A stretch of 64,000 bases of DNA from Selenomonadaceae bacterium (GCA_017476425.1 JAFUZV010000115.1:17349-81348), one strand, 5' to 3'. Counted from the stretch's first letter, positions 4,945-37,819 are shown. Numbers and translations: made by a program. The notes: generated by a model from the sequence alone, not told the origin.

Positions 4945-6036
4945 TTATCCTTTATAATTATAAAAACTATCACATTCAACAGGTTCATATCCTGCCTCAA
5001 TGATAATTTTATTTAATTTTTTACAAGTTATACCTGAATTTTCTTTTGATCCGGCTGAATGAATTATTTTTTCTTCACCGATCGTTCCGTCAAGATCATC
5101 AGCTCCAAAATTAAGTGCAAGTTGTGCGATCGGCAATGTCAACATTACCCAAAAGGCTTTTATATGATCAAAATTGTCAAGAATTAAACGCGATAACGAA
5201 ATCATTTTTAAATCTTCCCAAGAGCTGACACGTTCAAGATTATATTTTTTACCGAGTTCAGTATTTGCCGGGTGAAATGGAAACATCAAAAAGGCTTGAA
5301 ATCCACCGGTTTCATCTTGTAATTCACGTAATTTAATTAAATGATCAATACGTTCTTCAATCGTTTCAATATGACCGTACATTATTGACGCATTTGATTT
5401 TATTCCTAGTTTATGAGCTGTTCTCATAACGTTTAGCCATTCATCGCCGGTTGCTTTTTTAGGACAAATAATTTTTCTAACACGCTCCGAAAAAATTTCT
5501 GCGCCGCCGCCTAATAAGGAATTTAATCCAGCTATACTTAGAATTTTCAGCACTTCTTCAATACTTTTTGCACTCTGCTTGGAAAAATTTACAATTTCTA
5601 CAGGTGTAAATGCTCTTATGCTGATATTCGACAAAGATTTTTTTATAAATTTTACAATTTCAACATAATATTCAAAAGGTTTATTTGGATGCAAAGCACT
5701 AACAATATGAATTTCAGAGAGATTTTTAACAGACTTAATATCATTGACGATTTTTTCAATGTCGTTAATTTCTAGAGTATACCCGGAAAAATCATCAGAC
5801 TTGCAACTAAATGCACACAACGGACAATTTGAACTACAGATATTCGTCAAATTGATATGTCTATTGACTATATAAAAAACTTTGCGATCGGATTTTTTGA
5901 GTTTCATATTTTGCGCCCATTCACCGAGCGATAATAAATCATTATCTTCATAGAGTGCTAAAGCGTCTTTTTTAGTAAGCCGTTCACCTAAAAAGGCTTT
6001 TTCTCTAGCAATTTTAATTTCATTTTTTATAATCAT
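4945..6036 (-). CDS. Radical SAM enzyme, CofH/MqnE family (aminofutalosine synthase-like), paralog B
   Basis: 363-aa ORF. HINLTNICSSNCPLCAF cluster motif. C-terminal LNFGADDLDGTIGEEKIIHSAG is of MqnE/CofH type. Closely paralogous to the upstream gene. Confidence 0.6.
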   Translation of the reverse strand: MIIKNEIKIAREKAFLGERLTKKDALALYEDNDLLSLGEWAQNMKLKKSDRKVFYIVNRHINLTNICSSNCPLCAFSCKSDDFSGYTLEINDIEKIVNDIKSVKNLSEIHIVSALHPNKPFEYYVEIVKFIKKSLSNISIRAFTPVEIVNFSKQSAKSIEEVLKILSIAGLNSLLGGGAEIFSERVRKIICPKKATGDEWLNVMRTAHKLGIKSNASIMYGHIETIEERIDHLIKLRELQDETGGFQAFLMFPFHPANTELGKKYNLERVSSWEDLKMISLSRLILDNFDHIKAFWVMLTLPIAQLALNFGADDLDGTIGEEKIIHSAGSKENSGITCKKLNKIIIEAGYEPVECDSFYNYKG

Positions 6037-19023: not shown

Positions 19024-19057
19024 CTGTAACTGAAAAATTTTACAGGAAGTGAATTTT

Positions 19058-19945
19058 ATGGATTTTTTTCACCAGTTTATACAACAATTAATCAATGGCG
19101 TTTCACTCGGCAGCATTTACGCTTTGATCGCTCTTGGTTATACGATGATCTACGGAATAATCAAGCTGATCAATTTTGCACACGGTGACGTTTATATGTT
19201 CGGTGCTTACATTGGATTTTTTGCGATTTCAATGTTACACCTGCCGATCATTCCGGCGTTGTTGATCTCAATGGTCATAACGGCTTGTCTTGGAATGCTG
19301 ATCGAAAAAATTGCTTATAAACCATTGCGTCACGCTCCAAGAATTTCTTTATTGATCACGGCGATCGGCGTTTCATTCTTTCTTGAATATGTAACAATGT
19401 ATTTTGTAACTCCAACGCCGAGAACTTTTCCGAATGTCATTGAAAATATTTCATTCAATTTCGGCGGTTTCATTATCAACGGTCAACAACTTCTGATCTT
19501 AGGAATTACGATCGTTTTGATGGCGATTTTAACTTATATTGTCCAAAAAACGAAAGTCGGTAAAGCAATGAGAGCGGCATCATTTGATACTGAAACGGCA
19601 CAATTAATGGGTATAAATTCCGATCAGATCATTTCATTGACATTCTGCATAGGATCAGCACTTGCGGCAGCCGCCGGCGTTTTAGTCGGTGTCTATTACA
19701 ATACTATTGATCCGTTGATGGGTATAATGCCCGGCTTGAAAGCCTTTGTTGCAGCAGTCTTAGGCGGAATTGGAATTTTACCGGGTGCAGTCGTCGGTGG
19801 TATCATTTTAGGCGTAATTGAAGCACTTGTATCCGGTTTTCTCTCGTCAACGTTTAGAGATGCAGCGGCCTTTGCGATCTTGATCCTTGTACTTTTGATC
19901 AAGCCTTCCGGTCTCTTCGGTAAAAATACTAATGAAAAGGTTTAA
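19058..19945 (+). CDS. livH: Branched-chain amino acid ABC transporter permease LivH
   Basis: ATG at 19058 after AGGAAGTGA. QQLINGVSLGSIYALIALGYTMIYG is the LivH N-terminal signature. Confidence 0.85.
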   Translation: MDFFHQFIQQLINGVSLGSIYALIALGYTMIYGIIKLINFAHGDVYMFGAYIGFFAISMLHLPIIPALLISMVITACLGMLIEKIAYKPLRHAPRISLLITAIGVSFFLEYVTMYFVTPTPRTFPNVIENISFNFGGFIINGQQLLILGITIVLMAILTYIVQKTKVGKAMRAASFDTETAQLMGINSDQIISLTFCIGSALAAAAGVLVGVYYNTIDPLMGIMPGLKAFVAAVLGGIGILPGAVVGGIILGVIEALVSGFLSSTFRDAAAFAILILVLLIKPSGLFGKNTNEKV

Positions 19946-20780
19946 AATTAATTCGTTATTTGAAGATGATACAGAAGAAATTTTTAATAATTGTAAAACT
20001 AAAATAATTGAATTTGGCGAAACATTTTCAATAGACACTTGCATTGATAAAATCATTCACGGCGATTGTTTAGAAGTTATGAGAAAAATGCCCGATCATT
20101 GCATTGATATTATAATTACTTCACCGCCATATAATTTGTTTAATTCGACGGGTAACGGCTTGCATAGAAATACTAAAGTCGGCAAATGGAAAAATGCCGC
20201 GATCAAAAACGGTTATGCTGAATATGATGACAATATGCCTTATGATGAATATATTTCTTGGCAGCGTGAATGCGTCACTGAAATGTGCAGGATTATTACA
20301 GACGACGGTGCAATTTTCTACAACAATAAAAATCGTGTACAAGCCGGACTTTTACAAGACAGAGGCGAAATTTTAAAAGGTTTTCCACTTCGACAAATTA
20401 TCACTTGGAAACGTTCCGGCGCAATTAATTTCAATCCCGGTTATTTCTTACCAACGACTGAACAAATTTATTTGATCTGTAACAAAAATTTTAAACTTGC
20501 AAAAGGCGCAAATAAATATACCGACGTTTGGGAAATCAAGCAGAAAATGAAAAATCCACATCCTGCACCTTTTCCCGAAGAACTTACAGATCGGATCGTT
20601 TCAAGCACGACAGGAAAAATCATTCTTGATCCATTCGGCGGTTCAGGTACAACGGCGGTATCTTGCAAAAAGTTCGATAGAAATTTTATTTTGATCGAAA
20701 AATCAATGAGATACTGCGAACTTGCAAAGAATAGAATTGAAGGCAAGGAAGATTGGCGCGATATACAAGATGATTTATGA
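19932..20780 (+). CDS. Site-specific DNA methyltransferase, beta-class amino-MTase (SPPY motif IV; N4-C or N6-A)
   Basis: 282-aa ORF overlapping the livH end by 14 nt. GDCLEVMRKMPDHCIDIIITSPPYNL (motif IV) is N-terminal and ILDPFGGSGTTAV (motif I) is C-terminal, which is the beta-class order. No endonuclease-like neighbour. Confidence 0.8.
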   Translation: MKRFKINSLFEDDTEEIFNNCKTKIIEFGETFSIDTCIDKIIHGDCLEVMRKMPDHCIDIIITSPPYNLFNSTGNGLHRNTKVGKWKNAAIKNGYAEYDDNMPYDEYISWQRECVTEMCRIITDDGAIFYNNKNRVQAGLLQDRGEILKGFPLRQIITWKRSGAINFNPGYFLPTTEQIYLICNKNFKLAKGANKYTDVWEIKQKMKNPHPAPFPEELTDRIVSSTTGKIILDPFGGSGTTAVSCKKFDRNFILIEKSMRYCELAKNRIEGKEDWRDIQDDL

Positions 20781-20826: not shown

Positions 20827-21774
20827 ATGAACTCAATCAGAAAACGAGATTTTATAATGCTGATCGTCGGACTGATTGTCTTTGCAATATTGCAAGGCTT
20901 GATGAGTGCCGGAGTGATCGGATCGTTTTGGCAGCTGAATTTAATTTTAATCGGAATAAATATCATAATGTCAGCAAGTCTGAATTTGATCAACGGTTAT
21001 ACAGGACAATTTTCACTTGGTCACGCAGGATTTATGGCAGTCGGTGCTTATGTTGGAGTTGTCTGCACGACGAATTTCGGAATGCCGTTGATCGTTGCAT
21101 TGATCGCAGGTGCAGCGGCGGCAGGTCTTTTGGGATTTATGATCGGTCTTCCGACTCTTAGACTTCGTGGCGATTATCTTGCGATCGCAACTTTAGGACT
21201 TGGTGAAATTATTCGTATCGTGATTATGAATATTGAATACGTTGGCGGCGCAGCAGGTTTTAAAGGCATTAAACATTTAACGGACTTCACTTGGGTATTT
21301 TTCATAATGCTTTTTACTCTTTTCTTCATTAAAAATTTTGTCAACTCAACACACGGACGTGCTTGCATTTCGATTCGTGAAAATGAGATCGCCGCTGAGG
21401 CTATGGGTATCAACACGACGAAATATAAAGTAATGGCGTTCACGATCGGCGCAGCTTTCGCAGGTATCGCCGGCGGACTTTTCGCTCATCAATTCTATTT
21501 GATCAGTCCGAATTCATTTACTTTTATGGCTTCGTTCAATTATTTGATTATGGTTGTTTTAGGCGGACTCGGATCGATAACAGGATCAATCGCCGGAGCA
21601 TTCGTCGTTACATTCATTTCAGCGGCACTTGCAGCTTGGCCTGAATTTAGAATGATCATTTATGCACTTGCATTGATCTTGTTGATGTTTTATCGTCCGC
21701 AAGGTCTTTTCGGTTATATGGAAATTACAAATTTAAAACCGATTCGTCAAGTGCTTGATAAAATCAGTCGTTGA
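20827..21774 (+). CDS. livM: Branched-chain amino acid ABC transporter permease LivM
   Basis: 315-aa polytopic ORF. NLINGYTGQFSLGHAGFMAVGAY and LRLRGDYLAIATLGLGEIIR are LivM signatures. Confidence 0.85.
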   Translation: MNSIRKRDFIMLIVGLIVFAILQGLMSAGVIGSFWQLNLILIGINIIMSASLNLINGYTGQFSLGHAGFMAVGAYVGVVCTTNFGMPLIVALIAGAAAAGLLGFMIGLPTLRLRGDYLAIATLGLGEIIRIVIMNIEYVGGAAGFKGIKHLTDFTWVFFIMLFTLFFIKNFVNSTHGRACISIRENEIAAEAMGINTTKYKVMAFTIGAAFAGIAGGLFAHQFYLISPNSFTFMASFNYLIMVVLGGLGSITGSIAGAFVVTFISAALAAWPEFRMIIYALALILLMFYRPQGLFGYMEITNLKPIRQVLDKISR

Positions 21775-21834
21775 TTTTAAATCGTTGATGATAATTATAA
21801 TAGCGATAAAATTTTTAAAGAAAGGATTTTTATA

Positions 21835-22707
21835 ATGAATGTTGATAAATTCTTAATTACACAATACTTGGGGGGGGGGGGGCTTGCATATGAACTTTTG
21901 ACGAGCCGCCGTCTTGAAAATGATAAATGCCTTGAGAAATATGGATTCAAAGTCTATTCACAAAATGATGAAGATGGAATTATTGAAGAAATTTTTAATC
22001 GCATTGGTACGACGAATAAAATTTTCGTTGAGTTCGGAGTTGAAAATGGACTTGAGAGCAACGGTCATTATCTTCTGCATAAAGGCTGGCGTGGATTCTG
22101 GATCGATGGCAGTGAAAAAAATATTCAAGAAATTGCATCAAGATTTTATCCTGCGATCTCAAATAAACAGCTTGTTTTTAAATGTGCCTTCATCACTAAA
22201 GACAATATCAACGATTTAATAAGTAGCGTTGTGAAAGGTGAAATTGATCTTTTAAGCATTGATGTTGACGGTAATGATTATTACATTTGGGAAACAATTA
22301 ACGTTGTCAATCCTAGAGCAGTTGTTATTGAATACAATGCAAAATTTCCGCCTAATCATGAATGGAAAATGGCTTACAACGAAAAACATCATTGGGACGG
22401 CTCCGATTGTTTCGGTGCATCTTTGAAGGCTTTAGAACTTCTTGGTCGAAAACTTGGTTATCAATTAGTTGGAACCAATTTAAATGGTGTAAATGCTTTC
22501 TTTGTTAGAAAAGAATTAGCAGGTGACAAATTCATTCAAGCCGCAACGGCTGAAGAATTATATAATCCATTCAGAACAAAAACTCATAAATTTACAAATG
22601 GGCATCCTCCAGCGTATTTTTTAGATCACCAACTTCCGAATTTAGGTTTGAATAATTATAATCCTGTTGAATATGAGAAAGCGAAGTCAGATTTAAATCA
22701 AAAATAA
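21835..22707 (+). CDS. FkbM-like putative SAM-dependent methyltransferase carrying a 13-G tract at codons 12-16
   Basis: 290-aa ORF. YSQNDEDGIIEEIF and LLSIDVDGNDYYIWE resemble FkbM-type methyltransferase-like proteins (weak recall). The G13 run at 21870-21882 encodes GGGG and is in frame in this sequence. Confidence 0.45.
   Translation: MNVDKFLITQYLGGGGLAYELLTSRRLENDKCLEKYGFKVYSQNDEDGIIEEIFNRIGTTNKIFVEFGVENGLESNGHYLLHKGWRGFWIDGSEKNIQEIASRFYPAISNKQLVFKCAFITKDNINDLISSVVKGEIDLLSIDVDGNDYYIWETINVVNPRAVVIEYNAKFPPNHEWKMAYNEKHHWDGSDCFGASLKALELLGRKLGYQLVGTNLNGVNAFFVRKELAGDKFIQAATAEELYNPFRTKTHKFTNGHPPAYFLDHQLPNLGLNNYNPVEYEKAKSDLNQK
21870..21882 (+). repeat. Homopolymeric G13 tract inside the 5' end of a CDS (candidate slipped-strand phase-variation switch)
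   Basis: Counted directly: G at 21870 plus GGGGGGGGGG at 21871-21880 plus GG at 21881-21882. It is the only long G/C homopolymer I saw in this AT-rich window. Confidence 0.9.
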
Positions 22708-22723
22708 TTTATGGTGAACTTAT

Positions 22724-23437
22724 ATGAAACAAAAAATAATTTTAGATATTCATACTCACACTTATGCAAGCGGTCACGCTTATGGAACGATTCGAGAAAT
22801 GGCTTATGCAGCGAGCATTAAAGGTTTAAAGGCGATCGGTTTCACGGAACACGCTCCGGGCATTCCTGGAACTTGTGATCCGTTTTACTTTTGCAATTTA
22901 AAAGTTATTCCACGTGAAATTTTCGGAGTAAAAATTTTTCACGGCAGCGAGATTAACGTATTAAATGACGGAACTTTATCACTTGATCAAGAATGGATCG
23001 ATCGTCTTGATTATGGAATTGCCGGGATTCACGTACAATGTTATCACGATGAAGGCATTGCAAAGAATACTCAAAATTTAATTTCTTGTATGAAACACCC
23101 GAAAATTTATTTTGTTTCACATCCGGACGACGATCATACACCGCTTGATTACAATCATTTAGTGCTTGCAGCGAAAGAATATCACGTTGCACTTGAAATT
23201 AATAGCAGTTCACTTTTCAAAAAAGATCGGCGACTGAATTGTTACAAGAATTATGAAACAATGTTAAATCTCTGTATGAATTTGCAAGTTCCGATCTTCG
23301 TTGGCTCTGATGCTCATGATCCTTCAGGCGTTGGTGATTTTAAACTTGCTGAAGAATTTTTAACTGAAATGAATTTTGATGAAGATTTGATCATTAACAA
23401 TGATTTTGACAAGTTCGTTAAATTTATAAATTTTTGA
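22724..23437 (+). CDS. PHP-domain phosphatase (YcdX-like)
   Basis: 237-aa ORF. N-terminal LDIHTHTYASGHAYGTIREM and later GSDAHDP match the PHP metal-binding His/Asp pattern. Confidence 0.75.
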   Translation: MKQKIILDIHTHTYASGHAYGTIREMAYAASIKGLKAIGFTEHAPGIPGTCDPFYFCNLKVIPREIFGVKIFHGSEINVLNDGTLSLDQEWIDRLDYGIAGIHVQCYHDEGIAKNTQNLISCMKHPKIYFVSHPDDDHTPLDYNHLVLAAKEYHVALEINSSSLFKKDRRLNCYKNYETMLNLCMNLQVPIFVGSDAHDPSGVGDFKLAEEFLTEMNFDEDLIINNDFDKFVKFINF

Positions 23438-23446
23438 GGTGATCAA

Positions 23447-24220
23447 ATGGCGGAACTTTTAAAAGCTGAAAATGTTTCTGAAGTCTTCGGCGGCTTGAAA
23501 GCTGTTGACGACTTCAATATTTATATCAATCAAGGCGAATTGATTGGACTTATCGGACCGAATGGCGCAGGTAAAACGACGGCATTTAATCTGATAACCG
23601 GCGTTTATCAACCTACGACCGGCGAAATTACTTTTGACGGCAAAAGCCTTGTAGGTTTAAAGCCTTATCAAATTACTCAACGCGGTATTGCAAGGACTTT
23701 TCAAAATATCCGTTTGTTTTCTGAATTGAGTGTTTTAGATAATGTCAAGATTGCTTATCATTGCCACGTTAAATACGGTTTACTTGAATCCGTTTTGAGA
23801 CTCGGAAGATATTTTTCAGAAGAAGATGAGATCGAAGAGGAAAGTTTAAAGTTATTAAAAATTTTTAAACTTGATGAGCATGCAAATGAAGCCGCTAAAA
23901 ATTTGCCTTACGGTGCGCAGAGACGATTAGAGATCGCAAGAGCATTAGCGGCAAAACCAAAATTATTATTGCTTGATGAACCGGCGGCAGGTATGAATCC
24001 ACAAGAAACGAATGAATTAATGGAAATGATCCGCTGGATCAGAAAACAATTCGGCTTGACAGTACTTTTGATCGAACACGATATGAGTTTAGTAATGGGT
24101 ATCTGTGAAAGAATTTATGTTTTGGAATATGGGATTATAATTGCAAGCGGTACGCCGGAAGAAATTCAAAATAATCCTGAAGTTATTCGAGCTTATCTCG
24201 GTGCTGAAACGATCAATTAA
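23447..24220 (+). CDS. livG: Branched-chain amino acid ABC transporter ATP-binding protein LivG
   Basis: 257-aa ORF. FGGLKAVDDF, Walker A GPNGAGKTT, the LivG-specific insert (YHCHVKYGLLESVLRLGRY), LSGG-like YGAQRRLEIARAL and Walker B LLLLDEPAAG. Confidence 0.85.
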   Translation: MAELLKAENVSEVFGGLKAVDDFNIYINQGELIGLIGPNGAGKTTAFNLITGVYQPTTGEITFDGKSLVGLKPYQITQRGIARTFQNIRLFSELSVLDNVKIAYHCHVKYGLLESVLRLGRYFSEEDEIEEESLKLLKIFKLDEHANEAAKNLPYGAQRRLEIARALAAKPKLLLLDEPAAGMNPQETNELMEMIRWIRKQFGLTVLLIEHDMSLVMGICERIYVLEYGIIIASGTPEEIQNNPEVIRAYLGAETIN

Positions 24221-24239
24221 TATCAAAAATTTATTATTG

Positions 24240-24268
24240 AATCTGCTGACGATAGCGGATTTTTTTAT
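24240..24268 (+). terminator. Rho-independent terminator after livG
   Basis: AATCTGCTG (24240-24248), loop ACGA, TAGCGGATT (24253-24261) with two G:U pairs, then TTTTTTTATTT. Confidence 0.6.
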
Positions 24269-24300: not shown

Positions 24301-24326
24301 TTGACAATCGTTTTTTTTTTTATAAT
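24301..24326 (+). promoter_or_regulatory. Promoter candidate for the RiPP-like cassette with a T11 tract in a short (14-nt) spacer
   Basis: Perfect TTGACA (24301-24306) and perfect TATAAT (24321-24326). The spacer ATCG+T10 is only 14 nt, and the T run spans 24311-24321. Confidence 0.4.
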
Positions 24327-24384: not shown

Positions 24385-24567
24385 ATGAAGAAAAAATATT
24401 CAGTGCCGAAAGTGATCAATATGCCGCAGGAAATTCAAAGTGGTGTTCCTGGAGCACTTTTAGGTGCAGCATATATGATTGGTCGTGCAGTTACAGCAGC
24501 AGTAAAAGGACACATTGATTTAAAAGCCGGTATGAACGAACCAAAAACTTTGCAGAGTAGGAAATAA
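24385..24567 (+). CDS. Candidate RiPP precursor peptide (60 aa, no Cys/Trp/Phe)
   Basis: GAAGGTGG SD 10 nt upstream. The stop lies 3 nt before the PqqD-like gene. Sequence: MKKKYSVPKVINMPQEIQSGVPGALLGAAYMIGRAVTAAVKGHIDLKAGMNEPKTLQSRK. Confidence 0.5.
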   Translation: MKKKYSVPKVINMPQEIQSGVPGALLGAAYMIGRAVTAAVKGHIDLKAGMNEPKTLQSRK

Positions 24568-24570
24568 ATT

Positions 24571-24882
24571 ATGTATAGAGATTTAGAAAGTTATTCAATC
24601 GTGAAAAATATTTTGCTTGAATCAGTGCCTAAAATTGAAGCGTTGAAATTTCGCACGGAAGGTGAAATTTTAATTGTCGTCAGTCGTGAAAAAAAACTTT
24701 TCTTTTTGAATGAAGTTGCAAAAGATTTTTTACTTCTTTGCAATGGTCAACGTACACTTGCAAAAATTATTGATGCGTTTATTGAAATTTATGACGTTGA
24801 AAAAGATCAGTTGACTAACGATTTGATCGATACAATTCAAGATTTGCAGTACAAGAGAATTTTGCGTGTGGAGGCGGCGTAA
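24571..24882 (+). CDS. PqqD-family peptide chaperone (RiPP recognition element)
   Basis: 103-aa ORF. FFLNEVAKDFLLLCNGQRTLAKIIDAFIEIYDVEKDQLTNDLIDTIQDLQYKRIL follows the PqqD/RRE consensus layout. Confidence 0.65.
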   Translation: MYRDLESYSIVKNILLESVPKIEALKFRTEGEILIVVSREKKLFFLNEVAKDFLLLCNGQRTLAKIIDAFIEIYDVEKDQLTNDLIDTIQDLQYKRILRVEAA

Positions 24883-24884
24883 AT

Positions 24885-25922
24885 ATGGACGAGATTGAAA
24901 AGCGTTTGAAACGTGAAGCGGCAAGTACTGCAAAAATTGACGAAGACCGAAACCGTTTGATAGCTGAAGGTAGTTATCCTGAAAAATTCAGTTTTCCGAT
25001 CGCTATGCAGTTTGAGGTTACTTCTAAATGTAATTTGCGTTGCAAGCACTGCTATAATCGTTCGGGCAATTCCAATGTTGCTGATACTGTGACCGGCGAT
25101 GATTGGATCAATTTTTCAAAAAAGTTAGTTGAAAAAGGCGGCTTATTTGAAACGACATTTTCCGGCGGTGAGCCATTACTTTTAGGCGATAAACTTTTTG
25201 AAATTATGGACGTACTTTATAAAGATGGTACAATTTTTAATCTCATATCGAATGGATATCTTTTCGACAAAAAGATTCTCGATAAATTAAAAAAATATCG
25301 TTTCTACTGGATTCAAATTTCACTTGATAGTTGTAATTCAAAAAGTCACGATGAATTTAGAGGCGTTAAAGGTAGTTGGGAACGTGCAACAAAGGCAGCT
25401 TATAGAATTGCATTGTCAGGAATACCGCTTAGAATTGCCTCAACTGTCACTCCGTCAGAGTTGGAAAATTTGGAGAAAATGGTGCAAACAGCGATCAATC
25501 TTGGAGCGTCATATTTGGTTATTGGTGAAGTTATGCCTAGTGGTCGTGCTTTTGACAATGAAGAAATTTTTTTGTCACGGGAGCAACTCAATCAATTTTA
25601 TTTAACTACTGACGAAATCATTAAACGTTATAAAAATCAGTTGACAATTTTAGTTAGCTCGACAACTCGCACACAGTTGAATTATTCTTCTTCTGAAAAA
25701 CTTGATGGTGCAGTTGTTCGACCGAATGGTGATGTTCGTTTAGATTGCACTTGTCCATTCGTCATAGGTAATATTTTGCGTGACGATGTAGAGGAAATTT
25801 GGGCGAAGTATTTTAATTGCTGGCAGAATCCACTTGTTAAGAAATTTATTGAATCTTGTGATCCTATAAGTGGAAAAAATTCTTTTGCTGAAAATTATAA
25901 CGGCGAGGATATTTATTTATAA
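24885..25922 (+). CDS. Radical SAM enzyme with reduced SPASM/twitch-like C-terminal domain (peptide maturase candidate)
   Basis: 345-aa ORF with GGAGGCGG SD. CNLRCKHCYN (Cx3Cx2C) and GGEPLL. The C-terminal part has NGDVRLDCTCPF plus only three further Cys (SLDSC, FNCW, ESCD). No Cx2Cx5Cx3C block is visible. Confidence 0.8.
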   Translation: MDEIEKRLKREAASTAKIDEDRNRLIAEGSYPEKFSFPIAMQFEVTSKCNLRCKHCYNRSGNSNVADTVTGDDWINFSKKLVEKGGLFETTFSGGEPLLLGDKLFEIMDVLYKDGTIFNLISNGYLFDKKILDKLKKYRFYWIQISLDSCNSKSHDEFRGVKGSWERATKAAYRIALSGIPLRIASTVTPSELENLEKMVQTAINLGASYLVIGEVMPSGRAFDNEEIFLSREQLNQFYLTTDEIIKRYKNQLTILVSSTTRTQLNYSSSEKLDGAVVRPNGDVRLDCTCPFVIGNILRDDVEEIWAKYFNCWQNPLVKKFIESCDPISGKNSFAENYNGEDIYL

Positions 25923-35567: not shown

Positions 35568-35598
35568 TTGACAAAAGCAAATTTTTTTTTTTTATAAT
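35568..35598 (+). promoter_or_regulatory. Promoter candidate with a T12 tract in a 19-nt spacer
   Basis: Perfect TTGACA (35568-35573) and TATAAT (35593-35598). The T run spans 35582-35593. Confidence 0.4.
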
Positions 35599-37792: not shown

Positions 37793-37819
37793 GACATTAA
37801 AAAAAAAAAACGCTATTAT
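37791..37819 (+). promoter_or_regulatory. Promoter candidate with an A12 tract in the 17-nt spacer
   Basis: TTGACA (37791-37796), spacer containing A12 (37799-37810), TATTAT (37814-37819). Confidence 0.45.

Follow-up and report, generated by a model that had tools for sequence, protein, structure and literature searches.

Repeat-driven phase variation has been studied almost wholly in host-adapted pathogens. In the lic1 locus (licA) of Haemophilus influenzae, 5'-CAAT repeats are located in the first gene of the operon. The Campylobacter core phasome includes S-adenosylmethionine (SAM)-dependent methyltransferase genes with poly-G tracts of 8-13 (PhasomeIt, PMC6321876), and in Neisseria gonorrhoeae a poly-G tract is located in the pilin glycosyltransferase gene pgtA (PMC2193922). 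A 2025 review left it open whether phase-variable genomes are truly confined to pathogens, as they appear to be, and named database bias as a possible reason (PMC11868660). Here we analysed a stretch of 64,000 nucleotides (hereafter the window) from a Selenomonadaceae bacterium, which matches ENA contig ERZ27256838 k141_736318, and found a 13-G homopolymer (G13) early in an open reading frame (ORF) for an accessory protein with a predicted SAM-methyltransferase fold. We consider it likely that this tract is a simple-sequence contingency switch, by which slipped-strand mispairing would turn translation of the gene ON or OFF. The ORF and the tract are as follows.

21835-22707, + strand: ORF of 290 aa for an accessory protein with predicted SAM-methyltransferase fold, distantly FkbM-like, ON with G13
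21870-21882, + strand: 13-G homopolymer, 35 nt into the ORF, in frame (ON)

The tract consists of the third base of codon 12 (TTG) and codons 13-16, which are four GGG codons encoding four Gly. The ORF starts with MNVDKFLITQYLGGGGLAYELL, and the tract region reads MNVDKFLITQYL-GGGG-LAYELL. G13 is the only G/C homopolymer of at least 6 in the window (GC 34.7%), where the expected number of runs of G13 or longer is ~1e-5 by base composition and ~3e-6 by a first-order model. Only 19 of the 1102 Gly codons (1.7%) in the window's 49 other long ORFs are GGG, and the chance of four GGG in succession given this codon usage is ~9e-8. The tract is maintained despite the codon bias against GGG.

Reading frames were simulated for tract lengths G8-G17. 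The full ORF (289-291 aa) was obtained from G10, G13 and G16 only, and all other lengths terminated within 17-22 codons at one of two TGA codons. These stops and the other signals near the start of the ORF are listed below.

21891-21893, + strand: TGA stop met at G11, G14 and G17 (+1 state) in the simulation, giving an 18-20 codon peptide; the related contig L167 (G14) is in this state
21899-21901, + strand: TGA stop met at G9, G12 and G15 (-1 state) in the simulation, giving a 20-22 codon peptide
21898-21900, + strand: in-frame TTG (codon 22), the start picked by gene callers on OFF alleles (P0122 and P0123, 269 aa, beginning MTSRRLEND)
21820-21826, + strand: Shine-Dalgarno-like GAAAGGA, read directly, 8 nt 5' of the ORF ATG; AAAGGA is also found before the start in contigs L001 and L167
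21785-21812, + strand: promoter-like TTGATG-16-TAAAAT within the 60-nt spacer between livM and the ORF, with 9 of 12 consensus matches, by consensus match only

Upstream of the tract, neither of the other two frames offers a usable start codon in the window, and the first in-frame ATG downstream of it is codon 179. The TTG at codon 22 is probably not a true rescue start, because it is not preceded by a Shine-Dalgarno sequence. Promoter-like sites are fewer overall in this region than in its shuffles, so that the site at 21785-21812 is weak evidence. Rfam families were found nowhere in the window, so it has no riboswitch or frameshift element. A sequence-only reading of the window had placed the tract at codons 12-16 in frame, had called it the sole long G/C homopolymer of an AT-rich 64 kb, and had seen no in-frame Met that could rescue translation after a +1 or -1 slip. 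Direct reading confirmed the position and the frame, and the other two statements also hold, with the TTG at codon 22 as a nuance to the last.

In the mechanism that we favour, slipped-strand mispairing during replication would add or remove a G in the tract. At G10, G13 or G16, translation from the ATG at 21835 would read into the SAM-methyltransferase-fold enzyme of 289-291 aa (ON). At other lengths it would stop after 17-22 codons at a TGA just past the tract with no usable restart, so that the enzyme would be absent (OFF), and a subsequent slip would put the frame back. Switching would be frequent and reversible inside one population, and it may diversify the cell surface against phages or host immunity.

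Comparison of the tract in relatives, a check that had been proposed in the sequence-only reading, revealed that its length differs among near-identical contigs. A second assembly (L086, Logan SRR12529321) has 13 single nucleotide polymorphisms over 4.5 kb against the window and no gap, and carries G13 (ON). Because this non-identical assembly also has G13, the tract is not an artefact of a single assembly. Contig L167, from another sample (ruminant-gut study, SAMN15829980), aligns over 2,529 nt with the window at 99.4% identity; the alignment shows 14 mismatches and one 1-nt gap. This lone gap is an additional G in the tract, which gives G14, out of frame (OFF). The same was found in a sister lineage of the window, whose protein is 89% identical and whose gene order is the same: L001 has G10 in frame (ON), and L168 has G9 (OFF) at 98.0% identity with L001, with one 1-nt gap, again in the tract. 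The only indels between the near-identical pairs, over 2.5 kb and 1.1 kb, are those in the tract (G13/G14 and G10/G9). A long G repeat early in the coding region, lengths that abolish the frame, indels confined to the tract and intact bodies of both ON and OFF alleles were all found here, as in a simple-sequence-repeat contingency locus.

Homologues at 60-81% protein identity have a G8-G11 tract at the same codon as the G13 of the window, and both states were found among them.

In frame (ON): L005 G10; L088 G9; L089 G9; L172-L174 G9 (three samples)
Out of frame (OFF): L003 G11; L087 G9; L169 G8; L170 G8; L019 G9 (Gemmiger metagenome-assembled genome (MAG), Clostridia)

The ORF body downstream of the tract is intact in all these ON and OFF homologues. 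The OFF alleles P0122, P0123, P0002, P0004 and P0010 encode complete bodies of 269-272 aa, and the bodies of L087 and L019 are intact by tblastn. The stochastic ON/OFF switching proposed from the sequence alone is thus supported by the tract-only indels in near-identical contigs and by the in-frame and out-of-frame tracts of homologues with intact ORFs.

The tract site corresponds to a family-wide Gly-Gly motif, with the consensus [WY]-x-G-G-[ILMF]-x-[YW]. Because tract-free relatives encode Gly-Gly at the same site, where they read IWGGLRW or TGGFCWEEL, we infer that the tract arose through expansion of a conserved Gly-Gly(-Gly) motif. A step of "3 Gly to 9G" has been proposed as the origin of Campylobacter poly-G tracts (PMC6321876).

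Three Synergistales/Fretibacterium homologues have no poly-G, and carry a pentanucleotide repeat (CACGA/GACAC) after about codon 8.

L011, 5932-5966: (CACGA)n, seven copies, in frame (ON)
L014, 5922-5971: (CACGA)n, ten copies, out of frame (OFF)
L016, 5927-5971: (CACGA)n, nine copies, out of frame (OFF)

It is a second, independent repeat type, which is immune to homopolymer sequencing error. A repeat tract lies between -250 and +60 nt of the site in 21 of 166 homologue loci, against about 3 predicted from the background of 0.06 per kb; four of the 21 were discounted, since they are at or near contig ends amid low-complexity sequence and look like junk. The C16-C20 or A33 runs upstream of termite-gut homologues, located at or near a contig end (L027, L061, L094) or within a low-complexity block near one (L098), were rejected as probable assembly or two-colour-chemistry artefacts. 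Other runs with an ambiguous frame or start were not used as evidence: T14 at 5839-5852, ~130 nt 5' of the start, in the Helicobacter bilis homologues L070 and L072, and G14 at 5366-5379, which begins at a candidate ATG, in the termite-gut Spirochaetaceae homologue L023.

A comparison of P0017 with L088 (971-1020) showed a second ATG in another frame, 11 nt 3' of the main start and in frame at G10. Its product would begin with nine other residues (MILFFLPIR...) and otherwise be the same enzyme. In this lineage, ON states might thus arise in two of the three phases; the window has no such alternative start.

The ORF product is listed in GenBank, with identical sequence, as MBR1729468.1 ("hypothetical protein", Selenomonadaceae bacterium MAG), and has more than 7,800 homologues, nearly all of them unnamed. 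No significant Pfam or NCBIfam match was obtained for it in direct scans. In the search for an FkbM-type fold with profile models, PF05050 (FkbM methyltransferase, Methyltransf_21) matched the window protein with an E value of 0.027 and 15.0 bits, which does not reach the gathering cut-off of 22.7. A sub-threshold PF05050 match was present in 23 of 23 aligned relatives (best E 3e-4), and the similarity spans residues 125-177. Profile search revealed no sequence relative in the PDB, only a chance ThiF match (E 0.37).

An AlphaFold model made from the alignment of relatives had a predicted local distance difference test score (pLDDT) of 63.8 and a predicted template modelling score (pTM) of 0.69. 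Alternating strands and helices form a confidently predicted core, and residues 1-20, including the Gly tract, are disordered. Foldseek against the PDB gave 129 matches at E <=1e-3, and the top 50 listed all have the class I SAM-methyltransferase fold. Residues 64-72 (FVEFGVENG), which follow strand 63-67 in the model and are conserved in the family alignment, are a candidate glycine-rich SAM-binding motif I. The family also has a IDLLSIDVDGND motif, which resembles the FkbM core. The FkbM-like methyltransferase of the sequence-only reading is therefore only partly retained: the predicted class I SAM-methyltransferase fold, shared with the FkbM family, and the weak PF05050 matches agree with it, whereas the score below the gathering cut-off, the lack of NCBIfam and PDB sequence matches and the generic structural likeness do not. 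A SAM-methyltransferase fold that is distantly FkbM-like is supported by the model, and the family is effectively an unannotated sister family of FkbM.

In two Selenomonadales MAGs (L004 5956-8271 and L006 5959-8136), proteins of 725-771 aa combine the ORF family in their N-terminal half with a canonical FkbM domain (PF05050, 1.6e-16) in the second half. The fusion gene adjoins a polysaccharide deacetylase gene and has no poly-G tract.

The gene lies inside the liv operon, as had been read from the sequence, in the order livH, DNA methyltransferase, livM, ORF, PHP and livG.

19049-19945, + strand: livH permease gene, the first liv gene of the unit
19932-20780, + strand: type II-like N6/N4 DNA methyltransferase gene (PF01555 1.2e-37; PADLOC MTase_II 4.8e-101), another accessory gene inserted into the operon, between livH and livM, with no repeat tract
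20827-21774, + strand: livM permease gene (BPD_transp_2 1.3e-46), directly 5' of the variable slot
22724-23437, + strand: PHP-domain phosphatase gene (PF02811; NF006702 2.8e-73), 16 nt 3' of the ORF
23447-24220, + strand: livG-type ABC ATPase gene (ABC_tran and BCA_ABC_TP_C), which closes the transcription unit and might be subject to polarity
24239-24262, + strand: terminator-like hairpin plus T run, 3' of livG; the sole intergenic site of this kind on the + strand from livH to livG

Neighbouring genes in this unit are separated by 9-60 nt, except that livH overlaps the DNA methyltransferase gene by 14 nt. Given this tight spacing and the single terminator, the OFF state may plausibly have polar effects that modulate PHP and livG. 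The GC content at third codon positions is 0.27-0.30 in the DNA methyltransferase, ORF and PHP genes, and 0.39-0.41 in livH and livM.

In L178 (1612-2283) and L179, a lineage with livG at least 90% identical, a GNAT acetyltransferase gene without repeat tract is found between livM and PHP. Because GNAT replaces the ORF there, the livM-PHP slot is a replaceable cassette site, and PHP stays with livG. The slot of the DNA methyltransferase in L001 (4482-4916) is, unlike in the window, occupied by a 144-aa ORF without assigned function, and 3' of livG (L001 8443-9997) there are genes for DpnI and a type II restriction endonuclease-like protein (DUF6996/6997). The liv operon serves as a landing pad for restriction-modification genes. 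Neither the ORF nor the PHP gene matched a defence system in PADLOC, and a defence-island reading was unsupported, despite the neighbouring DNA methyltransferase and the DpnI and restriction endonuclease genes of L001. Next to livH-livM-livG, both the window and L001 lack livF and a substrate-binding gene (livJ/K).

The window also contains three A/T homopolymers of at least 11, all of them between a perfect TTGACA -35 box and a -10-like box.

24311-24321: TTGACA-atcg-T11-ATAAT
35582-35593: TTGACA-aaagcaaa-T12-ATAAT
37799-37810: TTGACA-tt-A12-cgc-TATTAT

Possibly they adjust transcription as promoter-spacer tracts. The tract at 24311-24321 is upstream of a cluster (24385-25922) with a 60-aa ORF, PqqD and radical-SAM genes, which is like those for ribosomally synthesized and post-translationally modified peptides.

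Elsewhere, the poly-G homologues are single genes inserted in unrelated operons.

TerD-ORF-TerD: L005, L087, L088, L170, L171
ilvC-ORF-leuCD: L003
motA-motB-acpS-ORF: L172, L089

A relative of 407 aa with 65% identity is located in a glycan cluster with acyltransferase, FdtA, GT2, DegT, methyltransferase and epimerase genes. In this cluster (L175, also L176 and L177) G8-G9 tracts are present at 2985, 7040 and 10500, in genes for Acyl_transf_3, a methyltransferase and a hexapeptide acetyltransferase, and the 65%-identical relative itself has no tract. The three tracts showed no length variation among the three assemblies. Distant relatives (30-49% identity) were found on 20 IMG/VR viral contigs (L187-L206) of up to 228 kb, including a giant-virus MAG.

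The picture from these gene contexts is of a mobile accessory modification enzyme. By analogy with FkbM-type O-methyltransferases, and with relatives located in glycan clusters, the enzyme may methylate a cell-envelope glycan. A function related to branched-chain amino acids was also considered, as L003 has the gene between ilvC and leuCD and the window has it in liv; it is unsupported by the TerD, motAB-acpS, MeaB and glycan-cluster contexts. Because poly-G tracts in Selenomonadaceae and Gemmiger and pentanucleotides in Synergistales all occur ON and OFF, we propose tentatively, and with some doubt, a wider reading: the FkbM-like family may have evolved into a contingency gene repeatedly and by convergence in gut and rumen anaerobes, inserted as a cassette into liv, ilv-leu, ter and mot operons, and here possibly modulating the branched-chain amino acid transporter operon by polarity.

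Several points weigh against the slipped-strand switch and the role given to its product. All tract lengths are consensus calls of short-read metagenome assemblies, in which long G runs are error-prone, and three of the seven OFF contigs (L003, L168 and L169) came from one co-assembly, ERZ1667847. Some tracts appear stable, since the L172 lineage has G9 in all three assemblies. Foldseek TM-scores of 0.35-0.43 together with the pLDDT of 63.8 mean only moderate confidence in the model and a generic methyltransferase likeness, and the liv-operon context of the window and L001 gives no hint of a glycan target.

It might be that the tract is a mutational hotspot without adaptive role in a dispensable accessory gene, and that the OFF alleles are inactivated copies becoming pseudogenes. 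The gene is accessory, as a GNAT acetyltransferase fills the livM-PHP slot in a sister lineage and the homologues are single genes in many unrelated operons, and about half of the contigs being OFF is also expected under neutral drift. However, decay would wear down the tract and bring further lesions, while all OFF alleles retain the full uninterrupted ORF body downstream and the tract carries the sole indel in the near-identical pairs (2.5 kb and 1.1 kb). The long G run is kept at the same codon across 60-89% protein identity where GGG codons are rare, and a different repeat type is found at the same place in another phylum. We consider this explanation unlikely.

Sequencing or assembly error would produce the length differences if the gene were always in frame and the tract merely a short poly-glycine. 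Long G runs are miscalled by Illumina chemistry and by assemblers, C16-C20 or A33 junk occurs at or near several homologue contigs (L027, L061, L094, L098), and three OFF contigs share one co-assembly. But OFF alleles occur in at least five independent assemblies from different assemblers (ERZ28655174, ERZ1667847, Ga0310697, ERZ27234821 and the Lapin Gemmiger MAG), two non-identical populations each yielded G13, and a consensus error rate of ~50% is implausible. The Synergistales pentanucleotide repeats, which are not homopolymer-error-prone, are likewise ON and OFF, and error as the cause of the length differences is quite improbable.

RNA polymerase slips on long homopolymers and can partly rescue out-of-frame alleles, and in some homologues (P0017 vs L088) a second ATG in another frame gives the same protein with a different N-terminus; but an action of the tract mainly on RNA or on translation (transcriptional slippage on G13, or frameshifting by the ribosome), with graded expression and some enzyme still made from "OFF" genotypes, is very improbable, as the window has no alternative start in other frames and no frameshift-stimulating structure or Rfam element, and such an action would supplement, not replace, the DNA-level length variation seen between strains.

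A slipped-strand contingency switch as such is not a new mechanism. What this case adds is the uncultured commensal host, the population-level ON/OFF evidence from metagenome contigs, and the differing repeats at the same place in an unannotated family. Among the papers that searches of an open-access library listed, we found none that connects repeat-driven phase variation to Selenomonas, Negativicutes, Veillonella, Megamonas or FkbM enzymes. If the switch is confirmed with reads, it would mean that classical contingency loci operate in commensal Negativicutes, it would give a functional handle on an abundant "hypothetical protein" family with thousands of members, and it would mean that gene callers wrongly annotate OFF alleles as proteins of 269-272 aa with a truncated N-terminus. 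If the family is also a recurrent contingency gene, it would be a ready marker of repeat-driven phase variation in non-pathogenic uncultured commensals.

Among the described systems, phasevarions (Mod, HsdS/HsdM) also switch a methyltransferase by a repeat tract. A phasevarion was rejected for the window, since the tract-bearing ORF has no DNA-methyltransferase domain by Pfam, NCBIfam or PADLOC, and the true DNA methyltransferase (19932-20780), two genes upstream, has no repeat tract. The lic1 locus of H. influenzae is similar in the placing of the repeat just after the start codon, in the co-transcribed genes downstream and in the alternative ATGs, as in P0017. It differs in that its repeat is a tetranucleotide and its downstream genes belong to the same pathway, whereas PHP and livG are functionally unrelated to the ORF and a coupling with them is hypothetical. 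N. gonorrhoeae pgtA shows the same ON/OFF switching of a glycan-modifying enzyme by a poly-G tract in the coding region, with alleles with and without the tract among strains; unlike the ORF, it encodes a glycosyltransferase of known substrate and phenotype.

The nearest likeness, one of type, is with the Campylobacter poly-G genes, among them SAM-dependent methyltransferases such as Cj0170 and UbiE_3. Campylobacter is an Epsilonproteobacterial pathogen, whereas the host here is an uncultured Selenomonadaceae (Negativicutes) commensal of gut or rumen. Unlike Campylobacter, the window has a single G/C tract in 64 kb and no sign of a multi-locus phasome within it, and the ORF is in an amino-acid transporter operon, not in a capsule or flagellar glycan locus. 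Both have an intragenic poly-G tract (8-13 in Campylobacter) in an AT-rich genome, translational ON/OFF switching, length variation within a homology group and an accessory target of SAM-methyltransferase type, and for both an origin from consecutive Gly codons is proposed.

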